The notes: generated from the sequence alone by a model not told the origin. Shown: positions 1 through 12,653, numbered from the stretch's first letter. The stretch is DNA of 12,653 nt from Armatimonadota bacterium (GCA_052386995.1 JBQTJP010000101.1:1-12653); one strand, 5' to 3'. A program made the numbers and translations.

Positions 1-355
1 TGCACTTGATCGGATCGTTGTCCCCCGTCGCCCTGAAGCGGATGTCGTTGCTGTCGGCGGGCTGCACCAGGGTGTAGTCCCAGCAGCCAACCGAATCCGG
101 AGGCTCGACGAACCCGAACGTGCTCGACATGTTGGCCGCGTCGATCCCGTTCCATGTGTTGCGCTCGAGGTAGTAGCCCCACGCCAGTGATTTTAACTCA
201 GCGAGGACGCCGTCCGCCTCAGCGAAAAACGCGTCACGCCGCGCACCCAGATAGCGGGGAACCGCCAGGGCGATCAGGATGCCGAGAATCGCCAGGACGA
301 CGACGAGCTCAACGAGCGTAAAGGCCCGCTCCCCTTTGGGCTTCAGGCTGGTCAT
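1..355 (-). CDS. Type IV pilin paralogue (3' end beyond window edge)
   Basis: Hand translation from ATG at 355: MTSLKPKGERA|FTLVELVVVLAILGILIALAVPRYLGARRDAFFAEADGVLAELKSLAWGYYLERNTW...GCWDY...IKC. Class III signal peptide with F+1, E+5 and a hydrophobic helix; open to the window edge; closely similar to the pilin at 2123-2560. Not in the ORF track. Confidence 0.93.
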   Translation of the reverse strand, partial: MTSLKPKGERAFTLVELVVVLAILGILIALAVPRYLGARRDAFFAEADGVLAELKSLAWGYYLERNTWNGIDAANMSSTFGFVEPPDSVGCWDYTLVQPADSNDIRFRATGDNDPIKC

Positions 356-400
356 GTCGATACCCTGAACCGCGTTCCCCACTACCCGCGCGTTCACTTG

Positions 401-438: not shown

Positions 439-2049
439 TTAACGGCGGACGGTCTTGAGGACCCAGACGCCTTTGAAGTCCGCCAGGCCGTCGGGTTCGT
501 AGAGGTCCGTCAGCAGCTTCTTGAGCCGCTCCCATGCTGGGACCGGGAAGGGGCGCGTGAAGACGATCCAGATGACTCTGTGGCGGTCCGCGTAGGCCCG
601 GAACGCCGCCTTGTTGGCTTCGTCGGCGGCGGGATCGGGGCGGGCGGTCCCACCCGTGACATCCCAGAGCTCACGGGGCGTCATCTCCACGATACGCTGC
701 GTGCCTCTGTAATAGTAGGAGAACGGAATCGATCCTATGCCGGGGATAAGCAGAATGAGATCGTCCAGTGCAGCCCCCTCCGCGACCAGGGCCGCCGCGG
801 TGCGCCAGTTCCACACATCACCGCTGGCGTACACCCGCTCCAGGGCAGGAGCGGAGAACCCCAGGAGAGCCAGTACCAGCGCCAGGGCCACGGTGCGCCG
901 GAACGCCGGTGCTGCGCGGCCGCTGACCGCCGCAATGCCGCAGGCCGTGAGGATGGCGAAGGGAGGCACCAGATATGAGAAATACCGCGGGTAGAACACG
1001 TTGTGGCGAAGCGTGAAGACCAGGACGATGCCCAGCGGTACGACAAGGTAGCCGACAAGCAGCCACAGGGATCGAGGGGTCTTACGCAGGAACACCGCGC
1101 CGGCCAGCACGAGCGCCAGGAATGGAACCAGGATCGCGGCTTCAACGATGCCCGGCGTCGGCGGGGCCTGCCATCCGAAGTACCCGTCGAATCCAAGGAT
1201 GTGGCCGCCAAAGGCGAGGAGACCGAAGAGATTCAGGACCGTGTGCAGCGCGAATGGCGGGCGGACGTGGGGCCACGCGCGTCCGGACAAGACCGTCTCT
1301 ATCAGGAGGGGCAACCACGGGAGGTACCCTATCACGATGAGTAACTGGCTCACCACCCACGGGCGGCGGATATGGGGAGCCGCGGCCAGCACGAAGACGC
1401 CCTGACCCGCCAGCGTGAGGAACGCAAAATGATGCGTGTAGAGTGAGAGTACTGTGGCGGCGACGTAGGCCGGCCATGCCCACCACCGTTCCTCTGCGGC
1501 CAGCAGGAGGGCCGCCCACGAGGTGATCGTCAGAAGGCCGAGCAGAGGATACATCCTGGCCTCCTGCGCAGCGACGACGTGCAGCGGTGCGACTGCCGTG
1601 AGAAACGCGCCGAGGGCGCCTACGAGGGGACCGCCGAGCCGCCGGCCCAGCCACCAGGTCCCCCCGACCGTGAGGATGCTGGCCAGGGCGCCGACCGAGC
1701 GGAGCGCGGCTTCACCGATCCCGAACATCTTGATCCATCCCGAGAGGACCAGGTAATACAGCGGAGGATGCGGATCGCCCCACTTCGAGAAGGCGATCAC
1801 TTCTCCCAGCGACCGGTTTGCGGCGAACGCGGAAAACGCCTCGTCGAACCAGAGGCTGCGGTCGCCGATCGACGCAAACCGCAAGACCGCCGCCAGCGCC
1901 ATTAGACCCCCCACAATCGCGATCTGCACGAAGACGCCCGACCGCGCTACCGCCTGGCCGCCCGAGGCAGATGGGGACATCCCGCGACGCCCGAGTGAGG
2001 GCCACACAGTAGAAGGTATCGCGCGATCGAGGGGATCGTCACGCATCAT
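439..2049 (-). CDS. GT-C fold membrane glycosyltransferase (PMT/GT39/ArnT-like), candidate pilin glycosyltransferase
   Basis: Polytopic membrane protein with SLWFDEAFS (acidic DE motif after the first TM), DPHPPLYY, QEARMY, LYTHH and PRYF motifs typical of PMT_2/ArnT-like enzymes. Lies between two pilin genes. Start could instead be ATG 1980. Confidence 0.85.
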   Translation of the reverse strand: MMRDDPLDRAIPSTVWPSLGRRGMSPSASGGQAVARSGVFVQIAIVGGLMALAAVLRFASIGDRSLWFDEAFSAFAANRSLGEVIAFSKWGDPHPPLYYLVLSGWIKMFGIGEAALRSVGALASILTVGGTWWLGRRLGGPLVGALGAFLTAVAPLHVVAAQEARMYPLLGLLTITSWAALLLAAEERWWAWPAYVAATVLSLYTHHFAFLTLAGQGVFVLAAAPHIRRPWVVSQLLIVIGYLPWLPLLIETVLSGRAWPHVRPPFALHTVLNLFGLLAFGGHILGFDGYFGWQAPPTPGIVEAAILVPFLALVLAGAVFLRKTPRSLWLLVGYLVVPLGIVLVFTLRHNVFYPRYFSYLVPPFAILTACGIAAVSGRAAPAFRRTVALALVLALLGFSAPALERVYASGDVWNWRTAAALVAEGAALDDLILLIPGIGSIPFSYYYRGTQRIVEMTPRELWDVTGGTARPDPAADEANKAAFRAYADRHRVIWIVFTRPFPVPAWERLKKLLTDLYEPDGLADFKGVWVLKTVRR

Positions 2050-2641: not shown

Positions 2642-2839
2642 CGATCAGACCAGGGGTCTTCGTGTACTCCGGTCTCTCCCCGACAGTTCACCTCCCGCCT
2701 CCCGACGTCATCCCCATGTGACCGAGGACACGGCCCGCTCACGACGTAACCGCACGCCGGTCAACACCCTTTATGCCCATGCCCCAAGCGCTCTAGACAC
2801 ACGCGGAAACGAGCCCCGGACGCGTGGTTCGCGTGGCCG

Positions 2840-2858
2840 TGGTACTATGGCCGCGATG
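2840..2858 (+). promoter_or_regulatory. Candidate extended -10 promoter giving a leaderless mRNA
   Basis: TGgTACTAT (2840-2848) followed after 7 nt by ATG 2856; no SD is visible before either nearby ATG. Confidence 0.45.
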
Positions 2859-4145
2859 AATCGCGTGATCATCGTCGGGCTCGTCCTCTTCATCGCCGCT
2901 ATCCCGCTGCTGCCAACCATCGAGAGAAAGGTCGAAGCGACCCTGCTGACCTCGCTGCTCCTCGTCGTCGGACTCTATATCCACGCGCGGCGGGGCGGTC
3001 ACCCCGTTCGTACCCCGTTGGACGTCCCGGGAGTGACCCTCCTGCTGATTGCGACACTTGCCACGATTGCGTCCGTCGATCGCTTCGGGAGCCTGTTCCC
3101 ATCCTCGCTGCGGGGCGAGGGACTGCTGACGTTTGCCGGGTACATCATCGCGGCACTCGCCGCATCGCGGCTGGACCGGCGGGGCAGCAACGCCGTCGTG
3201 GCCGCCGCCCTGGCCGGAGGCAGCCTGGTGGGCGCCATCGCCCTGGCCCAGTTCTATGGATTACCCGTGAACGCGTGGCTGGGGATCGAAGGCATTCAGC
3301 GTGAAGGCCGAACGCCGGGGACACTCGGAAACGCGTTCTTCCTGGGCGGCTACGTCAGCCTCGTTCTCCCCGCGGCCGTCGCCCTTGCCGCTTTGGCGAG
3401 CGGAGAGAAGGCGCGCTGGCTGTACACCGCTGCCTCCACGCTCCTGTTTGCGGCGGCCGTCACATCTCAGACCCGCGCGGCGTGGGGCGCCCTGGCCGGC
3501 GCAGGGGTGCTGCTCTTCGTGCTGCTTCCACGGTCTCCCCAGATCCGTCGCCGTCTGATCACACTGGCGGCGATTGGCGTCGTCACGGCCCTCCTGCTGG
3601 ACGTCACCAATCCGTATGTGTCGTTTGGCCGGCGCGTGACGCTGACCTTCGACCCGAGCGACTCGTCGCTGGCGCAGCGACTCTATGTCTGGAAGCACAC
3701 CCTTCCGATGATCGTCAAGCGTCCTGTCCTGGGGTGGGGGTTTGGCGCGCTCCAGGGCCGGTTTCCCGATGCGGGATCACCGGAATGGCTGCGACTGTAT
3801 GGCTTCAGAATCGTTGGGATCGACACACCTCACACCGAGACGCTGCACTTCGCGTTCAGCATCGGCCTGGCCGGTCTGGCGGCCTATGTGTGGGTGTGGG
3901 CGGTGGTCGCATCTGCTCTTCGCGGCGCGTTGCGCCGCCGGGCCGGCTCATACGCGCTCGCGGCGGGACTTGCCGCCGCCATGGTCGGGTATGGGTTGTG
4001 GCTCCAGCTGGGCTGGAGCCACATGGGTCCCGCGAACGTCTTTTGGGTGCTTGCCGGTACGGCCGTCGCCCTGGGGCGGGAAGAGCGCCCTCTGCTTAGC
4101 GACCGCCCGTCGCCAGCTGGAAGATCGGCAGGTACAGCGAGATGA
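2856..4145 (+). CDS. O-antigen ligase-like (Wzy_C) membrane protein; candidate pilin O-oligosaccharyltransferase (PglL/TfpO-like)
   Basis: Many TM segments; RTPGTLGNAFFLGGY, SQTRAAW, SSLAQRLYVWKHTLPMIVKRPVLGWGFG and DTPHTETL match Wzy_C-family motifs with the conserved Arg and His. The track's start at 2718 adds an implausible hydrophilic N-terminus; 2856 (or 2847) is preferred. Divergent from pilA; 3' end overlaps the pilC 3' end by 50 bp. Confidence 0.8.
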   Translation: MNRVIIVGLVLFIAAIPLLPTIERKVEATLLTSLLLVVGLYIHARRGGHPVRTPLDVPGVTLLLIATLATIASVDRFGSLFPSSLRGEGLLTFAGYIIAALAASRLDRRGSNAVVAAALAGGSLVGAIALAQFYGLPVNAWLGIEGIQREGRTPGTLGNAFFLGGYVSLVLPAAVALAALASGEKARWLYTAASTLLFAAAVTSQTRAAWGALAGAGVLLFVLLPRSPQIRRRLITLAAIGVVTALLLDVTNPYVSFGRRVTLTFDPSDSSLAQRLYVWKHTLPMIVKRPVLGWGFGALQGRFPDAGSPEWLRLYGFRIVGIDTPHTETLHFAFSIGLAGLAAYVWVWAVVASALRGALRRRAGSYALAAGLAAAMVGYGLWLQLGWSHMGPANVFWVLAGTAVALGREERPLLSDRPSPAGRSAGTAR

Positions 4146-5313
4146 CCATCGCGCCGACGATCACGCCCATGACGATGATGAGGATCGGCTCCAGCAACGA
4201 GGTCAGGCTCGCGACCATCGTCTCGACTTCGACATCGTAGAAGTCGGCAACCTTCTCGAGCATCTGCTCGAGTGCACCGGTCTCTTCGCCCACCTTGGCC
4301 ATCTGCACGACCATCGGTGGGAAGACGCCCGAAAACTGCAGGGGGATCGCGATCGTCTGACCTTCGCGGATGCTGGCCCGGACCGCGTCCACCGCTTCGC
4401 CGATGACCACGTTGTCGATGGCCTTGGCCACGACCTCGAGCGACTGCATGATCGGCACGCCGCTACTGATCAGCGTCCCCAGCGTGCGTGTGAAGCGGGC
4501 CACGACGATCTTCCGGTTCAGTTCGCCCAGCACCGGCATCTTGAGCTTGAAGCGGTCGTAGCGCGCCCGGCCGCCGGGGGTCTGAAGATACCGGCGCAGG
4601 ACGTATACCGTGACCCCCATCACCGCCAAGATGATATACCAGTATCGCCGGATCGCCACGCTGCTCGCCATCGCGATCTGCGTCGGCAGCGGCAGCTGGC
4701 CCGACCCGCCGATCTCCCTGAACAGCGTCTCGAACTGCGGCAGGATCACGATCGTCATGAAGAACAGACCGCCCATGGCGGCCATGGTCAGCAGGATCGG
4801 GTAGACCATCGCCGAGCGGACCTTGCTGCGCAGTGCCTGCTCCTTTTCCATGTAGGTGGCGACGCGGTTGAGCACTTCGTCGAGCACGCCGCCCGTCTCG
4901 CCCGCCTTCACCATGTTGACGTAGAGGGACGAGAACGCTTTCGGATGGCGGCCCATGGAATCCGACAGGGGACGCCCGCCTTCGACGTCCACCCGCACCG
5001 CCGCGGTGATCTCCTTGAGCCGCTTGTTCGACGACTGCTGCTCGAGGATCGTCAGCGTCCGCACCAGCGACAATCCGGAGTTGACCATCGTGGCGAACTG
5101 CCGGCTGAAGATGGCCAGGTCCTTGAGGCCGATGCCCATCCATCCCTGCAGGCTCTGCAGGACGTCGGTCCGCTCGATCGTGCGCTCGAGCTTCGTGATG
5201 AAGAACCCCATGTCGCGCAGCCGGTCGACGACCATGGCGTCGCTGTCGGCTTCGATCACCCCGGCGATCATGCGGCCAGTGTTGTCTTTGGCGCTGTAGC
5301 GAAAGACGGCCAT
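4096..5313 (-). CDS. pilC: Type IV pilus platform protein PilC (GspF family)
   Basis: MAVFRYSAKD, FSRQFATMVNSGL, LYVNMVKAGETGGVLD, SAMVYP, VGEETGALEQML, LLEPILI, YLPIF; 405 aa; directly follows pilT. Confidence 0.96.
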   Translation of the reverse strand: MAVFRYSAKDNTGRMIAGVIEADSDAMVVDRLRDMGFFITKLERTIERTDVLQSLQGWMGIGLKDLAIFSRQFATMVNSGLSLVRTLTILEQQSSNKRLKEITAAVRVDVEGGRPLSDSMGRHPKAFSSLYVNMVKAGETGGVLDEVLNRVATYMEKEQALRSKVRSAMVYPILLTMAAMGGLFFMTIVILPQFETLFREIGGSGQLPLPTQIAMASSVAIRRYWYIILAVMGVTVYVLRRYLQTPGGRARYDRFKLKMPVLGELNRKIVVARFTRTLGTLISSGVPIMQSLEVVAKAIDNVVIGEAVDAVRASIREGQTIAIPLQFSGVFPPMVVQMAKVGEETGALEQMLEKVADFYDVEVETMVASLTSLLEPILIIVMGVIVGAMVISLYLPIFQLATGGR

Positions 5314-5319
5314 CTCCTC

Positions 5320-6495
5320 TTACCTCCTGGCAGCACGAGCAGGTTCGGCTTCACCGCCGGCTTCCCGAATCATCTTGCGGAGCTCCTCCGGATGGATCGC
5401 CCGGGACAGCGCGTCGTCGAGTGACACCATCTTCTGCAGCACGAGATCGCGCAGCGACTGGTCCATGGTCTGCATGCCGTACTGGCCGCCGGTCTGGATC
5501 GCGGTCTCGATCTGGTGGGTCTTCGCTTCCCGGATGAGGTTCTGGATCGCCGGAGTCGAGAACATGACCTCGACCGACGGCACCCGGCCCACTTCCTCGA
5601 TCGTCGGCCAGTTCCCCGTGGTCCCGCCGAGGCGCGAGCGCTGGGCGGTCCGGCTGTCCCGGGTACCCCGAAACCGCGCGTTGGGCAGCAGCTGCTGCGA
5701 GATGACCGCCTCGATCACGCTGGCCAGCTGGATACGGATCTGCTGCTGCTGATACGGCGGAAACACGTCGATGATGCGGTCGACCGACTGGGCGGCGTTC
5801 GCCGTGTGGAGCGTGGCGAACACCAGGTGACCGGTTTCGGCGATCGTCAGGGCGGCGCCGATAGTCTCGAGGTCGCGCATCTCGCCGATGAGGACGACAT
5901 TGGGGTCTTCGCGCAGCACGGCCCGCAGCGCGTTCGGGAAAGATTGCGTGTCAAACCCCAGCTCTCGCTGGTTGACGATGCTCTTCTTGTGCTGATGAAG
6001 GTATTCGATCGGATCTTCGACGGTCACAATGTGCCCGCTGCGCTCATTGTTGATGAAGTCGATCATCGACGCCAGCGACGTGGACTTGCCGTGCCCGGTC
6101 GGGCCGGTCACGAGGACGAGACCGCGGGGCTTGCGCGTGAGATCCTTCAGCGCCGGCGGCAGGTTCAGGGCCTCGATGGACGGGATGGTCATGGGCACCA
6201 CACGGGTGGCGATGCCGACGGCCCCCCGCTGCCGGTAGATGTTCACCCGGAAACGGCCCAGGCCCGGCACGCCGTAGGACAGATCGAGCTCCCAGAACTT
6301 CTCGAACTTCTGCTTCTGGAACGTGTTGAGCATGCTGTACCCGAGCTGGAACGTGTCCTCGGGCGACAGCACCTCGTACTGCTCCATGGGCTGCAGCCGG
6401 CCCCAGACGCGCATCGTGGGCTTGATGCCCGATGTCAGGTGCAGGTCCGATGCCGAGGCGGCCACGACCTCTCGTAGCAAGTCATCAATGTGCAT
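5320..6495 (-). CDS. pilT: Type IV pilus retraction ATPase PilT
   Basis: ASDLHL, Walker A GPTGHGKST, TVEDPIEY, LREDPNVVLIGEMRD (Walker B), AETGHLVFATLH (His box), AIRNLIRE-like AIQNLIRE, GMQTMDQSL. Confidence 0.96.
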   Translation of the reverse strand: MHIDDLLREVVAASASDLHLTSGIKPTMRVWGRLQPMEQYEVLSPEDTFQLGYSMLNTFQKQKFEKFWELDLSYGVPGLGRFRVNIYRQRGAVGIATRVVPMTIPSIEALNLPPALKDLTRKPRGLVLVTGPTGHGKSTSLASMIDFINNERSGHIVTVEDPIEYLHQHKKSIVNQRELGFDTQSFPNALRAVLREDPNVVLIGEMRDLETIGAALTIAETGHLVFATLHTANAAQSVDRIIDVFPPYQQQQIRIQLASVIEAVISQQLLPNARFRGTRDSRTAQRSRLGGTTGNWPTIEEVGRVPSVEVMFSTPAIQNLIREAKTHQIETAIQTGGQYGMQTMDQSLRDLVLQKMVSLDDALSRAIHPEELRKMIREAGGEAEPARAARR

Positions 6496-6508
6496 CCACG
6501 GATCCCTC

Positions 6509-8218
6509 CTACTCGACGAAAACCACGCGCAGCAACTCTTCGAGCGAGGTCATCCCCGCGAGAACTTTGGCGACCCCGTCCTGCTGCAGCGTCCGCATGC
6601 CCGCGTTCTGTGCGGCGCGCTTGAGGACATCCGAAGGCGCCTGTTTGGTCACCAGCGTCTTCGCTTCGTCGTCCATGATCAAGATCTCAAAGAGGCCGAT
6701 GCGCCCCTTGTAGCCGATGTGGCTGCAGTGCTCGCAGCCCTTGGCCTTGTAGATGACGATCTCTTCGCCTGCCGCACCCAGACCGTAGCGCGCCACGACC
6801 TCAGGCGGAGGCGTGTAGGGTTCCCGGCACTTCTGGCACAGCACGCGGACGAGCCGCTGCGCGACGACGCCGATCACGGATGACGAGACCAGAAATGGCT
6901 CGATCCCCATATCGGCCAGCCGCACGACCGCACCGGGCGCGTCGTTGGTGTGCAGTGTCGACAGCACCAGGTGGCCGGTCAGGGCGGCGTTGATGGCGAT
7001 GCGGGCCGTCTCCTCGTCGCGGATCTCGCCGACCATGATGATGTCGGGATCCTGGCGCAGGAACGACCGCAGGCCGGTCGCAAAGGTCAGCCCGGCCTTG
7101 GGGTTGATCTGCACCTGGGCGATGCCCGGCAGCTGGTACTCGACAGGGTCTTCGATCGTGATGATGTTGACCTCTGTCTTGTTGAGCCGATTGAGGATGG
7201 CGTAGAGGCTGGTCGTCTTCCCGCTGCCGGTCGGACCGGTAATCAGGATGATCCCGTACGGCTTGGTGACGAGCCCCTCAAATCGCGGAAGGTCGTAGGA
7301 GAGTAGGCCGAGCTTCTCGATGCCGACCAGCGCGGTCCGCTTGTCCAGGATCCGCATGACGACCTTCTCGCCGAAGGTCGTCGGGATGCTGGAGCAGCGC
7401 AGGTCGATCTCGCGCCCGTCGACGCGCAGCTCGATGCGGCCGTCCTGGGGCGCACGCCGCTCGGCGATGTTCATGTTCGCCATGATCTTGACGCGGCTGA
7501 CGGTCGCGGCCTGGACGTGCTTGGGCGCCATCTTGACGCTGTAGAGCGTGCCGTCGATCCGGTACCGGATCCGCACGTTGGTCTCTTGCGGCTCGACGTG
7601 GATGTCGCTGGCGCCCTGCCGGATCGCCTGCACCAGCATGAGGTTGACCAGGCGCACGACCGGGGCTTCCTCGGTGATCTGCCGGAGCTTGTCGATCCCG
7701 GCGTCATCGTCGATGGCGACGTCGCTCTGTCGGATCTCCTGGATCACCTGGTCGAGGGAGTTGTCCATCGCCGGATACTGGTTGACGGCGTACGTGAACC
7801 CCTCGGGGGTGATCGCGGCGGGGATGATCTCGCGCTCGACGACCCGCCGGATGTCGTCGAGCGCCAGCACGTCCAGCGGGTCGACCATGCCCAGCACCAG
7901 CGCGTCCCCGTCGGTCCGCAGCGGCACCACCTGGTAGCGGCGGATCAGCGCCTCGGGCAGCGACGTCAGCACGGCCTCGGGAATCGTCGTCCCTTGAATG
8001 TGCACGTACTCGATGCCGATCTGGTTGGCGATGGCCTTCGCGATCGCGTCCGGACTGGTGACCCCCAGCGCGACCAGCACCTTGCCCAGGCGGTCGCCGC
8101 TGGTCTGCTGGGCCTGGAGCGCCTGATCGAGCTGCGCCCGGGTGATGAGACCGGCCTCGACCAGGACTTCGCCCAGGCGGACGCGTCGCCGGGCGACCGG
8201 GCTCTTAGAGGGTCTCAT
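6509..8218 (-). CDS. pilB: Type IV pilus extension ATPase PilB with N-terminal MshEN c-di-GMP-binding domain
   Basis: Tandem MshEN motifs RLGEVLVEAGLITRAQLDQALQAQ and RLGKVLVALGVTSPDAIAKAIANQ (8021-8179); ASDIHVEP, GPTGSGKTT, LRQDPDIIMVGEIRD, TGHLVLSTLHTND; Zn-binding CQKC...CEHC. Confidence 0.96.
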   Translation of the reverse strand: MRPSKSPVARRRVRLGEVLVEAGLITRAQLDQALQAQQTSGDRLGKVLVALGVTSPDAIAKAIANQIGIEYVHIQGTTIPEAVLTSLPEALIRRYQVVPLRTDGDALVLGMVDPLDVLALDDIRRVVEREIIPAAITPEGFTYAVNQYPAMDNSLDQVIQEIRQSDVAIDDDAGIDKLRQITEEAPVVRLVNLMLVQAIRQGASDIHVEPQETNVRIRYRIDGTLYSVKMAPKHVQAATVSRVKIMANMNIAERRAPQDGRIELRVDGREIDLRCSSIPTTFGEKVVMRILDKRTALVGIEKLGLLSYDLPRFEGLVTKPYGIILITGPTGSGKTTSLYAILNRLNKTEVNIITIEDPVEYQLPGIAQVQINPKAGLTFATGLRSFLRQDPDIIMVGEIRDEETARIAINAALTGHLVLSTLHTNDAPGAVVRLADMGIEPFLVSSSVIGVVAQRLVRVLCQKCREPYTPPPEVVARYGLGAAGEEIVIYKAKGCEHCSHIGYKGRIGLFEILIMDDEAKTLVTKQAPSDVLKRAAQNAGMRTLQQDGVAKVLAGMTSLEELLRVVFVE

Positions 8219-8447
8219 GACGCTCCATGATCATCACGACGTGGGATTTGTGCACCATCACGACGTTCGTCTCGTAGAGCAACCGGCCGTCCAGGCTGAA
8301 CACGCGGGCCGTGGTGATGGGCAGAAAATCCTTGGCCTGGTTCAGACGGTCGGAGATGCGGGCCGTCGACGGCAGATGCAGATCGCCCTCGACCCGATGA
8401 TGAGGCGTGAACATGATCACCTGCTCGCGGTCCATCTCGACCTTCAT
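8205..8447 (-). CDS. 80-aa conserved-looking hypothetical protein (resembles DUF6812-type proteins; possible Sm-like fold)
   Basis: MKVEMDREQVIMFTPHHRVEGDLHLPSTARISDRLNQAKDFLPITTARVFSLDGRLLYETNVVMVHKSHVVMIMERHETL. ATG 8447 overlaps the MerR stop (ATGA) and the end overlaps the pilB start by 14 bp. The track's longer start at 8642 overlaps the MerR gene and is unlikely. Family label is from recollection and was not searched. Confidence 0.75.
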   Translation of the reverse strand: MKVEMDREQVIMFTPHHRVEGDLHLPSTARISDRLNQAKDFLPITTARVFSLDGRLLYETNVVMVHKSHVVMIMERHETL

Positions 8448-8725
8448 CGCCCCGAGCCCCGTCCCTCCGCGGCCAGTGACGCGGTCCGGGGGGTCTCGAC
8501 GAGACGCTGGATGCCCTTCAGGCTCATCCCGCGGTCGACCATGGCCTTGACCCAGCGGATCCGCTCGACATCTTCTTCGCTGTAGAGGCGGTGACCGCCT
8601 CCGGTCCGGGCCGGCGAGAGCAGATGGTACTGGTCTTCCCATGCCCGGATGCGCCGCGGGTTGACGCTGGTCAGCTGTGCGACGGTGCGGATGGGATAGA
8701 TGGGCGCGCGCTTGTCAACAATCAT
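8444..8725 (-). CDS. MerR-family HTH regulator, DNA-binding domain only (CarA/MlrA/HspR-like)
   Basis: YPIRTVAQLTSVNPRRIRAWEDQYHLLSPARTGGGHRLYSEEDVERIRWVKAMVDRGMSLKGI is a MerR winged HTH; 93 aa with no effector domain; ATGA overlaps at both ends. Confidence 0.9.
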   Translation of the reverse strand: MIVDKRAPIYPIRTVAQLTSVNPRRIRAWEDQYHLLSPARTGGGHRLYSEEDVERIRWVKAMVDRGMSLKGIQRLVETPRTASLAAEGRGSGR

Positions 8726-10293
8726 CGGAGACCTCCAGTGACTCCCGTACGCTGCGCCGTTGCGTAGTCGCGGGTCGGTCCGAACCCGTGCTCGCGCAGG
8801 TAACTGTAAATCTCCTGCAACTTCGAGAAGCCATGGAAATCGGGTCGGTACTCCTGGTCCGTCTTGTAGTCCAGCTCGACGAGCTTGTTCAGCGTGACGA
8901 AGAACGCGTACTGGACGATGTTGGACGCCGCCTCCGGCGCGTCGCGATTCTTGTCGATGAACATGTTGACGATATCGACGCGCGGCAGCTCATTCGTGGC
9001 GATGCCTTCGGACTTCGCGCGGGTCTCGATCAACTGCCGGAGATCGTGCGTGGCCTTCCAGTCCTTCGCCAGCACCATGGCGACGTCGAGGTCATATTCC
9101 AGGTCGCCGGAGCCCATGCTGTGATGCATCGTCGGGCGGTTGAACGGGTTGAAGATCTCTGACTCCTCCACGGGCCGCTCGTCCAGGCGGCAGCCCTCTT
9201 TGTCCAGCGGGGAGATCGCGAAGATCGGACAATTCAACTCCAGGCTCATCTCCGCCAACGCCGTCGAGATCCGGTCGGTGCGGGCCTTCCAGTCATCAAC
9301 GTATTCGTTCGACGGGATCTTTTGGAGGTAGTCGAAGAAGATCACGATGTCTTGCGTTTGAAACTCCTGCATCAGGTTGTGTGCGTGCGCCCGGATCCGG
9401 TCGAGCGTCTCCTTCCGCCCGGCCTCGACAAGGTGCAGGTAGGGACCGTAGCGGGCCAGCGAATCCCTTGCCGCGGCCACCTGCGGAGCCACCGCGTTGC
9501 CGGACCCATCCCACCCACCGAGGATCGCGGTGGGATTGATGCCGGTTTCCTTGGCGATCAAGCGCGCCGCGAGCACGCGCCGGGTCTGCTCCCAGGTGTA
9601 GTACAGCACCGGGACCCGATGATTGGTGGCGACGTACGCGGCGAGATCGAGCGCAAAGTTCGTCTTACCACGGCGCGGGGCGCCGGCGAGCCCGTAGTAG
9701 AAGCCGCGCCGGAGTCCCGAGAGCAGCATGTTCAGGCGATCGAACGGGCTGATCGAGAAGCCGAGGATCCCGTCTGTCATCTCCTCGCGCCCGGGCGTGG
9801 CCAGGCCTCCGAACGCCTCCGAGATCGGCGAGACCTGGCGCCGCACGCGGCGGCGCTGGATCTCGAGCAGCTGATGGATCGCCTCGGTCGTGAACTGCAC
9901 GATGTCAGCCTGCTGCGTGTCGCCCCTGTAGAGGTAGCCGCCGATGTTCTCGTGCACCGACGAGAGCAGCTCGCGGCTCTCGTGCGCCTTCAAGACCTCG
10001 ACCTGGGCGAGGAGATCGCCGGCGTTCAGTGGGGGGATCTGTGCCACCGCCTCCAGGTACCGGTCGAGTTCCGGAGAGATCAGGTTGCGGTCGGCGAGCT
10101 CCGCCCGCACCGTGCTCTCTTCGACCACGGCGCCCGGAGAAGCATAGAGCTCGAGGATGACCTTGGCCAGGCGGCGCGCCTGCGGCGAGCGCAGCAGGTC
10201 CACGTGAAAGCCTTCGTTGACGGCGAGCATGGCGAGATGGCGGTCGCGCAGCAGTCCACTGAGCAGGCGAGTCTCGGTCTGATAGAGATCCAC
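8722..10293 (-). CDS. Atypical DnaB-like (SF4/RecA-fold) ATPase/helicase paralogue
   Basis: N-terminus resembles the DnaB N-domain. C-domain has H1 GAPRRGKT, H1a VLYYTWEQ, H2 IFFDYLQ, H3 ELNCPIFAISPL, H4 GSGDLEYDLDVAM and a KNR finger. GTG start with a GGAGG SD. Confidence 0.85.
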   Translation of the reverse strand: MDLYQTETRLLSGLLRDRHLAMLAVNEGFHVDLLRSPQARRLAKVILELYASPGAVVEESTVRAELADRNLISPELDRYLEAVAQIPPLNAGDLLAQVEVLKAHESRELLSSVHENIGGYLYRGDTQQADIVQFTTEAIHQLLEIQRRRVRRQVSPISEAFGGLATPGREEMTDGILGFSISPFDRLNMLLSGLRRGFYYGLAGAPRRGKTNFALDLAAYVATNHRVPVLYYTWEQTRRVLAARLIAKETGINPTAILGGWDGSGNAVAPQVAAARDSLARYGPYLHLVEAGRKETLDRIRAHAHNLMQEFQTQDIVIFFDYLQKIPSNEYVDDWKARTDRISTALAEMSLELNCPIFAISPLDKEGCRLDERPVEESEIFNPFNRPTMHHSMGSGDLEYDLDVAMVLAKDWKATHDLRQLIETRAKSEGIATNELPRVDIVNMFIDKNRDAPEAASNIVQYAFFVTLNKLVELDYKTDQEYRPDFHGFSKLQEIYSYLREHGFGPTRDYATAQRTGVTGGLR

Positions 10294-10418
10294 CGTGCGG
10301 TTCCCTCCGATGTCGCGCGGCCAGACCGCGTGTGGCGGCCTCGCGCCGGCAACGCGAGAGTGGTCGCGATGTGGATATGCGTGCCCTGAACCTCCCGTGA
10401 ATCTCTTCGGACCTTGGC

Positions 10419-10447
10419 TTGCGCCGTGCCCAACCTTGTGCTATTGT
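10419..10447 (+). promoter_or_regulatory. Candidate sigma70 promoter for the riboswitch-pilB2 transcript
   Basis: TTGCGC (10419-10424)-N17-TATTGT (10442-10447) with extended TG at 10439-10440; predicted start near 10454, upstream of the riboswitch. Confidence 0.55.
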
Positions 10448-10488
10448 GTTCGCAATCTTCGGCGGGCAAGTCGAAATATGCCCAGAAG

Positions 10489-10516
10489 ATTGTAGCACTA
10501 GTCTCGAACGGGCAAA
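10489..10516 (-). promoter_or_regulatory. Candidate extended -10 promoter for the DnaB-like-pilBTC operon
   Basis: Minus strand TGcTACAAT (10497-10489), with TTTGCC/TTGCCC 15-16 nt upstream; predicted start near 10482. Confidence 0.5.
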
Positions 10517-10584
10517 CCCGAAGCGATTCGGGGACGCAAAGCCGAGGGACCGGCTCCTATGCCGGTCGGCCGGGTTGCTACGAG
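10503..10584 (+). ncRNA. c-di-GMP-I (GEMM) riboswitch aptamer
   Basis: GGGCAAACC-CGAA-GCGA-TTCG-GGGACGCAAAGCC matches the GEMM P2 consensus with a GNRA tetraloop. P3 is AGCC/GGTT plus GACCGGC/GCCGGTC; P1 is CTCG/CGAG. Ligand-contact equivalents of Vc2 G20 (10511), A47 (10538) and C92 (10578) are present. Located in the 5' leader of a pilB. Confidence 0.92.
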
Positions 10585-10589
10585 AAGCG

Positions 10590-10620
10590 CGGCGGCCTAC
10601 TCGGGGCCGCCGTTGTGATT
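10590..10620 (+). terminator. Putative intrinsic terminator, riboswitch expression platform
   Basis: CGGCGGCC (10590-10597), 7-nt loop, GGCCGCCG (10605-10612), then TTGTGATT (imperfect U-tract), immediately after the aptamer. Confidence 0.6.
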
Positions 10621-10690
10621 CGTGGGGAAATTCGAGCGGTCTTGGGCATATCCTTAGAGATCGACACCAACGATCACAGCCGGGGCCATC

Positions 10691-12653
10691 ATGCCTTCTT
10701 CCGACCACCGAGACGGCGCGCTGCATACCCTCAAGAACGCCGTTGGCCTGCCCGATGACAGCCTGACCCTCGAGCGCGCCTTTCGCTTCGCCGACGCGCG
10801 CGCGGCGGTTCGGGCCGGGCGCATGACAGAGGCGCGCGACGCGTACCTCCACCTGGCCGAGCTGGACGGGGACGAGCCCTGGGTTCATTGGGACCTGGCG
10901 ACGATTTTCCGGGCCCTCGAACTGCGGGGCGAGGCCGGACTTGCGTACCTGACCGCGGCCGACAAACATCTTGCGCGCGGCGAGACCGACCAGGTCTTTC
11001 AGGCGTATCAGCAGGCGGCGGCGGTGTCCCCGAATGATCCTCAAGTTCAGGCGAAGCTGGCGGAGCCGCCCACGCGGCCTGCGCCGCCAAACGGCGGCGG
11101 GCCCGGCGTGGCGGTGCGACAGCCCCCCGTCGCGCCGCCCTCCCCTCCAAAGCGACGTGAAAAGCCACCGGTCGAGCCGGCGGCGCCGCCCGCCGACGCG
11201 GCTGGCGCCGCCGACGGCGCCCCGCCGCCGGCTCGACCACCGCGTGCACGGGCCGGAAGTGAGGCGCTGGGGACGATCCTCGTCAGCATGGGCATTGTGA
11301 CCGAAGGCCAGCTGGCCGCGGCGCTGGAAGTCCAGGGCCGTACCGGCGAGCGCCTCGGCCATATACTGCGCGACATGGGCGTGGTCTCCGACGTCGATCT
11401 CGCGCGCGGCATGGCGGAGCAGTGGGGCTATCCGTACATCACCGTGGGCGAGCGCCGCGTCGACGCCGAGGTCGCCAAACTCATCCCGCAGGCCCTGGCC
11501 CGCCGTCACAAGTGCATCGCGGTCGAGAAGCGCAACGGTCGCGTCCTGGTCGCCATCGCCGACCCGCTGAACGTCATCGCGCTGGACGACGTACGGCTGA
11601 TCACCGGCATGGAAGTCGACGTGGCGGTGTCCACCGAAGATGAGATCGCCACCGCGCTCGCGCGCAGCTACCAGATCACCGACACGGATTTGATGGAACG
11701 CGTGTTGCGGGAGTCTTCGCCGGAGTTCGGCGCGGAGCTCGGCAGCGAGGACGATCCCACGCTCGAGCAGCTGAAAGCCCTCGTTGAGGAAGCGCCCGTC
11801 GTCAAGCTCGTCAACCTGATCATCGATGAAGCGGTCAAGCAGAGCGCCAGCGACATCCATATCGAGCCGCAGCGCGGCCAGGTCTGGATCCGCTACCGGG
11901 TGGACGGCGTGCTGCGGGACGTCATGAACCCACCCAAGCATCTCAAAGCGGCTCTGGTCTCGCGCATGAAGATCATGGCCGACATGGATATCGCCGAGCG
12001 CCGCAAACCGCAGGACGGCCGCATCCATCTCGTCGCCGATGGCCACAACATCGACCTGCGAGTCTCGACGCTGCCGACGATGTTTGGCGAGAAAGTCGTC
12101 ATGCGCATTCTCGATCAGTCCTCGACGATGATCGGCCTGACCAAACTGGGATTCCCCAGCGACACCCTCCGCCAATGGGAGAACGCGGCCGCCAAGCCCT
12201 ACGGGTTTCTCCTTGTCACGGGTCCCACGGGAAGCGGGAAGACCACGACCCTCTACGGCACGCTGAGCAAGCTGAACACGATGGACAAGAACATCGTGAC
12301 CGTTGAGGATCCGGTGGAATACCAGATCCCCCGGATCAATCAGGTCCAGGTCAACGCGAAAGCCGGCCTCACGTTCGCCAACGGTCTGCGCAGCATCCTC
12401 CGGCAGGACCCGGACATAGTGCTCGTGGGCGAGATCCGCGACCAGGAGACGGGCCAGATCGCCATCCAGGCCTCGCTGACCGGCCATCTCGTCCTCTCCA
12501 CCCTGCACACCAACGACGCCGCCGGCGCGATCACCAGGTTGGTCGACATGGGGATCGAGCCCTTCCTGATCAGCTCATCGCTGATCGGGGTGCTGGCGCA
12601 GCGCCTGGCCCGCGTGATCTGCACCAAATGCAAGGTGGCCTACTCGCCTCCAC
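10691..12653 (+). CDS. pilB: Second PilB/GspE-family ATPase with TPR-like N-terminus, Pro-rich linker and degenerate MshEN (3' truncated by window)
   Basis: Hand translation from ATG 10691 (in-frame stop upstream at 10655), open to the window end: MPSSDHRDG...YQQAAAVSPNDPQVQAKL-(Pro-rich)-ALGTILVSMGIVTEGQLAAALEVQGRTGERLGHILRDMG...ASDIHIEP...GPTGSGKTT...LRQDPDIVLVGEIRD...TGHLVLSTLHTND...CTKC. Missing from the ORF track because it has no stop in the window. Confidence 0.94.
   Translation, partial: MPSSDHRDGALHTLKNAVGLPDDSLTLERAFRFADARAAVRAGRMTEARDAYLHLAELDGDEPWVHWDLATIFRALELRGEAGLAYLTAADKHLARGETDQVFQAYQQAAAVSPNDPQVQAKLAEPPTRPAPPNGGGPGVAVRQPPVAPPSPPKRREKPPVEPAAPPADAAGAADGAPPPARPPRARAGSEALGTILVSMGIVTEGQLAAALEVQGRTGERLGHILRDMGVVSDVDLARGMAEQWGYPYITVGERRVDAEVAKLIPQALARRHKCIAVEKRNGRVLVAIADPLNVIALDDVRLITGMEVDVAVSTEDEIATALARSYQITDTDLMERVLRESSPEFGAELGSEDDPTLEQLKALVEEAPVVKLVNLIIDEAVKQSASDIHIEPQRGQVWIRYRVDGVLRDVMNPPKHLKAALVSRMKIMADMDIAERRKPQDGRIHLVADGHNIDLRVSTLPTMFGEKVVMRILDQSSTMIGLTKLGFPSDTLRQWENAAAKPYGFLLVTGPTGSGKTTTLYGTLSKLNTMDKNIVTVEDPVEYQIPRINQVQVNAKAGLTFANGLRSILRQDPDIVLVGEIRDQETGQIAIQASLTGHLVLSTLHTNDAAGAITRLVDMGIEPFLISSSLIGVLAQRLARVICTKCKVAYSPP

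Follow-up and report, generated by a model that had tools for sequence, protein, structure and literature searches.

A second DnaB-family ATPase captured and retained in a type IV pilus gene cluster

Background

Why does an operon-like string of type IV pilus (T4P) motor genes begin with a gene for a DnaB-like ATPase? The question is raised by a 12,653-base contig of an Armatimonadota bacterium (GCA_052386995.1, JBQTJP010000101.1; G+C ~65%), the whole of which is the window analysed here. On its minus strand six open reading frames lie head to tail: dnaB-like (designated dnaBL, product DnaBL), merR, DUF6812, pilB (pilB1), pilT and pilC (Table 1). The initial annotation, made from the window alone, took the first three genes to be a possible accessory module of the pilus. 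The replication enzyme DnaB is regarded as single-copy; DnaBL is a second DnaB-family ATPase, conserved in several deep, mostly uncultured lineages and apparently unstudied, and its capture in a pilus operon in one clade is the first testable lead to its role.

The initial annotation knew of no such operon in the literature, and none was found in the literature searched. A term search of a review of PilB cofactors (PMC11656802) gave no mention of DnaB, helicase, KaiC or Hfq, the main text of papers on the host phylum (including PMC11604079) mentioned neither pili nor DnaB, and a full-text literature search for a DnaB paralogue with pili returned nothing relevant.

Results

DnaBL is a paralogue of DnaB

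The DnaB equivalog model TIGR00665 matched DnaBL over model positions 7–418 of 435, at 104 bits against a cut-off of 385.25. A separate canonical dnaB, for which the initial annotation had proposed a check, was confirmed on another contig of the same genome (550.7 bits, cut-off 385), and a canonical DnaB above the cut-off was found in 5/5 genomes of other phyla bearing DnaBL. DnaBL is thus solidly placed as a paralogue of DnaB that coexists with the replicative copy. The canonical match (G000:C205:8482-10785) takes up 2,304 bases for the 435-position model in a 797-aa frame and looks as if it contains an intein.

The two-domain build of DnaB is present in DnaBL. A Geobacillus DnaB profile aligned with residues 5–475, and the top Foldseek matches of the AlphaFold model (pLDDT 67.6; N-terminal domain 85–93) were all DnaB chains, over ~480 columns. 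Pfam found only DnaB_C and AAA_25, with no KaiC-type family at E ≤ 0.01, and the ESM Atlas matches were only DUF6812 clusters and phage DnaB-like hypothetical proteins. A defence-system role was dropped: PADLOC gave no match for DnaBL, only a weak MerR-like one.

The genome also encodes RadA, ComEC and DprA outside this locus, with radA on another contig. The RadA model TIGR00416 had four matches in the genome, none on the window contig, with RadA proper at 491.9 bits, above the cut-off. Since the genome has its own RadA, the idea that DnaBL stands in for RadA was rejected. The RadA match (G000:C28:20105-22879) falls in two parts ~1.5 kb apart within one 945-aa frame and likewise looks as if it contains an intein.

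Extent of the family and host lineages

A word-indexed search returned >120 clusters at no less than 46% identity, whose source names were “replicative DNA helicase” or “Armatimonadota bacterium”. When 1.84 billion representatives were searched exhaustively with phmmer, 27 matched at E ≤ 1e-30, with full-length members down to 36% identity; below the family the scores fell sharply to 28% identity and 109 bits, and ordinary DnaBs scored 60–90 bits. Judged from these scores and from the tree below, DnaBL is a discrete, old, vertically inherited paralogue family.

The in-phylum sample comprised 94 genomes, all of one order (the host order), and DnaBL was found in 72 of them. Two unpublished genomes, G025 and G017, are included in the counts, and their omission alters no conclusion. 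CSP1-3/Sysuimicrobiota has been described (PMC11604079) as comprising a single class with a single order and five families; the host phylum is probably Sysuimicrobiota, because a one-order phylum matches that description. One record with a relative, Ca. Calidihabitans tengchongensis, is placed in Ca. Sysuimicrobiota by NCBI.

For relatives outside the host order, a genome collection was scanned with distant members as seeds. Of the 243 relatives found, 80 were taken, and 11 loci from within the order were set aside, leaving 69. The outside relatives carried the source labels Caldisericota, Cryosericum, Riflebacteria, Acidiferrales/Sulfotelmatobacter/Limnocylindrales, and “bacterium” or Armatimonadetes. 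In Riflebacteria-type members (P0131, P0132; L110 9302-11554) the DnaB-like body is preceded by a Cys-rich, zinc-ribbon-like segment at the N-terminus and by 200–280 residues of low-complexity sequence.

ATPase residues are invariant and the pore loop is altered

Residues were tallied in 120 family members, with positions counted via alignment to Geobacillus (Bst) DnaB; 11 duplicate loci, high-scoring segment pairs (HSPs) of <420 residues and HSPs containing a stop were dropped. Invariant in 120/120 were K210 and T/S211 of the P-loop (Bst K216), the catalytic Glu E235 (WEQT), the Walker B Asp D321 (Bst D320), and K448 and R450 (DKNRDAP), which correspond to K418 and R420 of Bst DnaB, the trans Lys/Arg finger. 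Bst R420 is reported to be an arginine finger, and the R420A protein to be inactive (PMC12214026, PMC3236778).

Two further positions differ from DnaB throughout the family. Position 362, equivalent to Bst Gln362 of motif H3, was Pro in 64/64 members in the host order and Ser, Ala or Gly in 56/56 outside it; position 393, equivalent to Bst Arg381 of the pore loop, was Met, Val, Thr, Lys, Ala or Ser and never Arg. Bst Gln362 serves as the gamma-phosphate sensor, and Bst Arg381 is a contact for single-stranded DNA (ssDNA). The loop between the two positions (362–393) is longer than that of DnaB and acidic, with a mean net charge of −3.6 in the host order and −1.9 outside it; the matching Bst stretch has a net charge of about +1 by hand count. 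These features suggest that DnaBL is an ATP-hydrolysing hexameric ring and not an ordinary replicative ssDNA helicase: the ring would bind and hydrolyse ATP without gripping ssDNA as DnaB does.

dnaBL is linked to pilus genes in three of four sizeable families

The surroundings of dnaBL were inspected in all 72 genomes that carry it, by mapping the window proteins onto the flanks. In family f1, to which the arrangement of the window belongs, a pilus ATPase gene adjoined dnaBL in 24/29 genomes, in the order DnaBL-MerR-DUF6812-PilB1-PilT-PilC with a divergent TPR-PilB2. In f4 (11/12) the order was PilB2-DnaBL-PilB1-PilT-PilC on one strand, and in f5 (11/11) a divergent PilB2 was followed by DnaBL-PilT-PilC. 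Direct linkage was thus found in 46/52 genomes of these three families. In f3 it was found in 0/20, with flanks of up to 8–9 kb, shorter at contig ends. Conservation of the dnaB-like/pil order, which the initial annotation proposed to test, therefore holds in f1, f4 and f5 and fails in f3. The outcome that the initial annotation named as refuting, homologues without recurrent linkage to T4P genes, was half borne out: linkage is present in those three families and wanting in f3 and in 67/69 loci outside the order (see below).

Three of the five f1 exceptions need a longer flank (in G014 pilB lies 590 nt further on) and two lie at contig ends. MerR followed DnaBL in 27/29 f1 loci and DUF6812 in 26/29; the misses were two contig ends and one genome lacking DUF6812. 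This recurrence of MerR and DUF6812 after DnaBL is an arrangement that exceeds chance. The f1 locus L039 (7866-8456) and the g5/g6/g8 loci L028–L032 have ~590 bases between DUF6812 and pilB, room for another small gene.

The remaining f4 genome, G071, has dnaBL between Wzy_C and prepilin peptidase (PilD) genes with pilin genes around, and PilB1-PilT-PilC is 9–12 kb upstream on the same contig. The linkage has persisted although pilB2 was inverted and merR and DUF6812 were inserted in f1, pilB1 was lost in f5 and, in G071, dnaBL itself moved to the Wzy/PilD site of the same cluster.

In the window itself, the ATGA overlaps of dnaBL/merR (8722-8725) and merR/DUF6812 (8444-8447) and the 14-base overlap of DUF6812 into pilB (8205-8218), all noted by the initial annotation, were confirmed, and gaps of 13 bases (pilB-pilT) and 6 bases (pilT-pilC) separate the remaining genes. 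With overlaps of 4, 4 and 14 bases, gaps of 6–13 bases and recurrence in relatives, the six genes form one operon-like unit. No sigma-70-like promoter was found in 3900-10800; a scan of the same interval gave two weak terminator-like sites, neither of them intergenic. A GG-N10-GC sigma-54-like string ~120 nt upstream of dnaBL was dropped as a candidate, being not conserved in relatives. A strongly conserved block, GACTA...CTGGGCATAT, was found at a single place in the genome, the riboswitch's 5′ edge on the strand opposite to dnaBL, and was for that reason assigned to the pilB2 leader or promoter and not to dnaBL.

History of the linkage

A tree of the 120 sequences was built with FastTree (LG model) and rooted arbitrarily on Caldisericaceae. 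It recovered the taxonomic families as clades: f1, f4 and f5 formed one clade (support 0.995), sister to f3 (1.0). The nearest outgroup to the order was a group of ten sequences labelled “Acidiferrales”, and the G071 sequence fell at the base of the order without support (0.236).

The f3 genomes have the orthologous pilus locus, with a MerR homologue, TPR-PilB2, PilB1, PilT, PilC, pilin and Wzy_C and no DnaBL; the two pilB genes were 47–185 nt apart in 2/3 loci. A metallophosphoesterase gene near dnaBL was common to f3 and three outgroup loci. Thus f3 and the nearest outgroup keep dnaBL at a housekeeping site, and the simplest reading would be that dnaBL was transferred from that site to the pilus cluster once, before f1, f4 and f5 diverged, with later local rearrangements that left it within the cluster. 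The stem branch of the linked clade measured 0.154 substitutions per site and that of f3 0.50, with root-to-tip distances of ~0.86 and 0.84. Because no burst of rate was seen on the linked-clade stem, there is no sign that the job of the protein changed at capture.

The joint occurrence of DnaBL and PilT was scored with a PilT orthologue defined as at least 62% identical to the window PilT; orthologues were found in 69/94 genomes. Both genes were present in 64/94 genomes and neither in 17/94, among these the high-quality genomes G017, G057, G059–G062, G069, G072 and G092. DnaBL alone was found in 8/94, with the contig ending inside the operon in G006, G084 and G087 at the least, and PilT alone in 5/94 (G023, G031, G034, G045 and G058). 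PilT-family genes of any kind occurred in 92/94 genomes and are uninformative for such a test.

dnaBL outside the host order

Among the 69 outside loci, many of them with short flanks, a PilB-family pilus ATPase gene was found in the flanks of two. In L108 pilB lies three genes (2.7 kb) downstream of dnaBL on the same strand, with gltX as a neighbour; in L099 a PilB-family gene lies 6.6 kb upstream on the other strand. In another lineage, a gene for a non-ATPase protein with an MshEN domain lies two genes downstream of dnaBL in 4/6 loci. A shared TPR partner was considered and rejected: the TPR genes downstream of dnaBL in L099 and L110 are unrelated to the TPR region of PilB2.

Elsewhere the neighbours were of the housekeeping kind. 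In Caldisericaceae they are genes for a GerMN protein and an amidohydrolase. In Cryosericum dnaBL has a GerMN protein gene as neighbour and dnaA-dnaN-recF-dciA ~1–6 kb away; in the locus L081 (4080-11443) the gene before it groups by BLASTP with the GerMN genes upstream of dnaBL in Caldisericaceae, and dciA-recF-dnaN-dnaA is on the other strand. In a further lineage group accB and accC are the neighbours; in L103 (9318-15557), from an uncultured lineage, dnaBL lies between accB and accC, and an unknown gene and a gene for an MshEN+SPOR protein come next, all with gaps of a few bases. Since pilB, pilT and pilC were present elsewhere in 5/5 outside genomes, absence of pili could not serve as an exclusion test.

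MerR, DUF6812 and c-di-GMP control

The initial annotation had grouped dnaBL, merR and the small gene as one module, and this did not hold. A MerR homologue (~59% identical) lies ~1–2 kb upstream of TPR-PilB2 in the clusters of f3 and f4, so MerR is not part of a DnaBL module; it has been in the pilus cluster for longer and is probably its resident transcription factor. At 93 aa it has no C-terminal effector-binding domain, the helix-turn-helix (HTH) match ending at residue 77, and its best NCBIfam matches, MlrA and HspR, were far below their cut-offs.

The small gene, described as coding for a beta-protein, could be assigned to a family, DUF6812 (PF20660), although its fold could not be named: its model had a pLDDT of 70.2 (four other models were much lower), and no fold match was found among 48,161 chains (best Z 3.3). 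DUF6812 occurred in 35/94 genomes, including 28/33 of f1, where it adjoins DnaBL-MerR whenever they are on one contig; the few matches in other families lie elsewhere. DUF6812 beside DnaBL is thus a lineage-specific addition found only in f1. A predicted co-fold of PilB1 with DUF6812 scored 0.00 in both runs, which carries no weight either way.

The c-di-GMP motif model NF053729 matched PilB1 at 68.2 bits (cut-off 38) and PilB2 at 53.7 bits. A c-di-GMP-I riboswitch-like aptamer heads the divergent TPR-pilB2 of the window (Table 1), and at the same position in 3/5 related f1 loci aptamers scored above gathering (58.9 and 49.4 bits against 35; 59.3 against 59). In f3 and f4 the aptamer heads a co-directional string, ~1 kb upstream of the MerR homologue, and the f4 dnaBL lies inside this riboswitch-headed string. 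Since aptamers are found in the cluster and the MshEN motif in both PilBs, the supercluster appears to be under c-di-GMP control at two levels, riboswitch and PilB. Further aptamer copies lie 7–8 kb away in f1 loci, and such aptamers look like a fixed feature of the supercluster.

Other features of the window

PilT has an Arg-rich insertion of ~30 residues (~277–310) that splits its TIGR01420 match, and PilT orthologues across the phylum show the same break. This insertion and the acidic DnaBL pore loop carry charges of opposite sign.

Genes for a PMT_2 glycosyltransferase, a Wzy_C protein and a pilin-like protein flank the motor genes and may be a pilin glycosylation set. Wzy_C-type enzymes glycosylate pilins. 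The Wzy_C and pilin genes recur in the pilus cluster of f3 and of G071.

Table 1. Positions of the genes and aptamers in the window and of c-di-GMP-I aptamers in related loci
Feature	Sequence	Positions	Strand	Evidence and remarks
DnaBL (DnaB-like), 523 aa, first cistron	Window	8722-10293	-	PF03796 DnaB_C 87.2 bits; GTG start, GGAGGG 8 nt upstream
MerR-type HTH protein, 93 aa	Window	8444-8725	-	PF13411 MerR_1 77.1 bits (cut-off 21.6), residues 10-77
DUF6812 protein, 80 aa	Window	8205-8447	-	PF20660 57.9 bits (gathering cut-off 27.1)
PilB1, extension ATPase with MshEN-type c-di-GMP motif	Window	6509-8218	-	PF00437 T2SSE 472.5 bits; MshEN 62.8 bits
PilT retraction ATPase	Window	5320-6495	-	PF00437 T2SSE; TIGR01420 459.5 bits in two stretches
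PilC platform protein	Window	4096-5313	-	PF00482 T2SSF 210.8 bits
c-di-GMP-I riboswitch-like aptamer, 5′ leader of TPR-pilB2	Window	10502-10583	+	RF03167 48.3 bits, E 5e-9, below gathering score 59
TPR-PilB2, second extension-type ATPase, divergent, leaves window	Window	10691-12652	+	T2SSE 414.9 bits; MshEN 70.2 bits; weak TPR matches
Wzy_C (O-antigen-ligase-like) membrane protein	Window	2718-4145	+	PF04932 69.3 bits
PMT_2 glycosyltransferase	Window	439-2049	-	Pfam
Pilin-like protein, N-terminal methylation motif, frame leaves left edge	Window	2-397	-	PF07963 33.3 bits
c-di-GMP-I aptamer	L036	10678-10766		Relative
c-di-GMP-I aptamer	L040	10674-10759		Relative
c-di-GMP-I aptamer	L037	8799-8884		Relative
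c-di-GMP-I aptamer	L175	3144-3234		Further locus
c-di-GMP-I aptamer	L176	3581-3663		Further locus
c-di-GMP-I aptamer	L042	4262-4350		Further locus
c-di-GMP-I aptamer	L155	15435-15522		Further locus
c-di-GMP-I aptamer	L178	3467-3544		Further locus

Discussion

The capture of dnaBL in the pilus cluster and its retention there are real. What they mean for the protein is a matter of weighing. We favour the reading that a c-di-GMP-controlled pilus supercluster acquired the gene of a housekeeping ring ATPase in a single event and then kept it, and we put the probability that the work of DnaBL is tied to a pilus-linked process at roughly one half. On this reading dnaBL would have moved once into the cluster, between two pilB paralogues, and would have been retained because co-production with the pilus motor was useful, its molecular job being the same where the gene is unlinked. 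The ring would not be a structural part of the motor. It may work beside the motor on a polymer passing the pilus machine, for which homology makes incoming DNA the first candidate; such action on DNA or another polymer is a tentative extension of the favoured reading. The competence genes comEC, dprA and radA in the genome count in favour of this reading.

Several observations weigh against a pilus-linked role. The linkage is of single origin and was then inherited, which makes it weak evidence for function; overlapping frames also make it difficult for a gene to leave an operon. In the sister family f3, dnaBL has no pilus ATPase neighbour in any of the 20 genomes, and the 67 unlinked outside loci have housekeeping neighbours that vary by lineage. 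The joint absence of DnaBL and PilT is explicable by one deletion or an assembly gap; we count it as weak because the genes adjoin in f1, f4 and f5, and f3, where they are apart, hardly varies. Finally, the acidic pore loop and the DNA-contact Arg that is never kept argue against plain tracking along ssDNA. The T4P accessory role suggested by the initial annotation is accordingly upheld as to conserved order and paralogy, and is weakened by the single linkage event and by the unlinked state of the sister family and most other lineages; a dedicated accessory module of three genes is more than these data can bear.

A less likely but real possibility is that dnaBL is a neutral hitch-hiker, a housekeeping DnaB-family ATPase of repair, restart or another DNA or RNA transaction that landed once between two pilB genes and stays by operon inertia. 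The diversity of its housekeeping neighbourhoods, seen in f3 and in seven further groups of lineages, fits this, as do the proximity to dnaA-dnaN-recF-dciA in Cryosericum, the retention of DnaBL beside canonical DnaB in genomes of 1.4–2.1 Mb, and the lack of a rate change after the one capture. Inertia accounts less well for a link that has outlasted four local rearrangements, one of them to a second position in the same supercluster, or for two unrelated lineages in which an MshEN or PilB gene lies no more than three genes from dnaBL, for which the chance estimate is only a few percent.

By analogy with ArlH-ArlI, DnaBL might instead be a built-in regulator of the motor, a ring docking on PilB, PilT or PilC and gating it in a nucleotide-dependent manner. 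The motor operon, with its overlapping frames, begins with dnaBL, which in f5 stands directly before pilT-pilC, and the protein has an intact ATPase site and a pore loop unlike a DNA-binding one. We nevertheless regard this as unlikely: f3 has the orthologous pilB-pilB-pilT-pilC with dnaBL elsewhere, ten f4 genomes and G092 lacking DnaBL retain other PilT/PilB sets, the family is mostly unlinked outside the order, and DnaBL has the full N-terminal domain of DnaB, which ArlH lacks. Nor did the term search of the PilB-cofactor review (PMC11656802) find a cofactor of DnaB type.

That DnaBL is another replicative helicase, or one belonging to an integrated phage or plasmid, is highly improbable in spite of full-length similarity to DnaB and to phage DnaB-like families (phrog_19 119.9 bits, TIGR03600 93 bits). 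All scores are far below curated cut-offs, canonical DnaB is present, the tree points to vertical inheritance by following the taxonomic families, the surroundings hold no phage or defence genes (nor is there a PADLOC match), and the residues at Gln362 and Arg381 are replaced in all members.

If DnaBL does work with the pilus, it would be a new class of partner for this nanomachine and may bear on the handling of DNA during uptake. If it does not, the locus would be a clean example of how operon conservation of single origin can mislead.

Comparison with known systems

DnaBL shares with replicative DnaB (TIGR00665; Geobacillus 2R6A/4ESV, E. coli) the N-terminal helical domain, the RecA-type C-terminal domain and the ATPase residues. 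It differs in its low score against that model (104 bits, cut-off 385), in being the non-replicative copy, in the replacement of Gln362 and Arg381, in the longer, acidic pore loop and in its place in a pilus operon.

The PilB cofactors (PilZ, FimX and c-di-GMP/MshEN control) resemble the present locus in having a small protein and c-di-GMP inputs beside pilB. In contrast, DUF6812 matches no solved fold, and DnaB, helicase, KaiC and Hfq are terms absent from the review of these cofactors.

RadA/Sms is a RecA-fold ring helicase related to DnaB whose substrate is DNA that enters by a pilus-dependent route. DnaBL has the DnaB N-terminal domain and lacks the zinc finger and the Lon-like domain of RadA. 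Loss of radA is reported to impair transformation (PMC6755099).

ArlH/FlaH is likewise a RecA-superfamily ATPase encoded beside a motor ATPase of the PilB family (ArlI). ArlH is a single domain of ~230 residues without the DnaB N-terminal domain, whereas DnaBL is a 523-aa two-domain DnaB homologue without a KaiC-type Pfam match. A DnaBL hexamer docked in all lineages on PilB, PilT, PilC or MshEN-domain proteins, and pulling a polymer or gating the motor, seems somewhat unlikely; if it did exist, the docked ring would be a bacterial counterpart of ArlH-ArlI built from a replication-type helicase.

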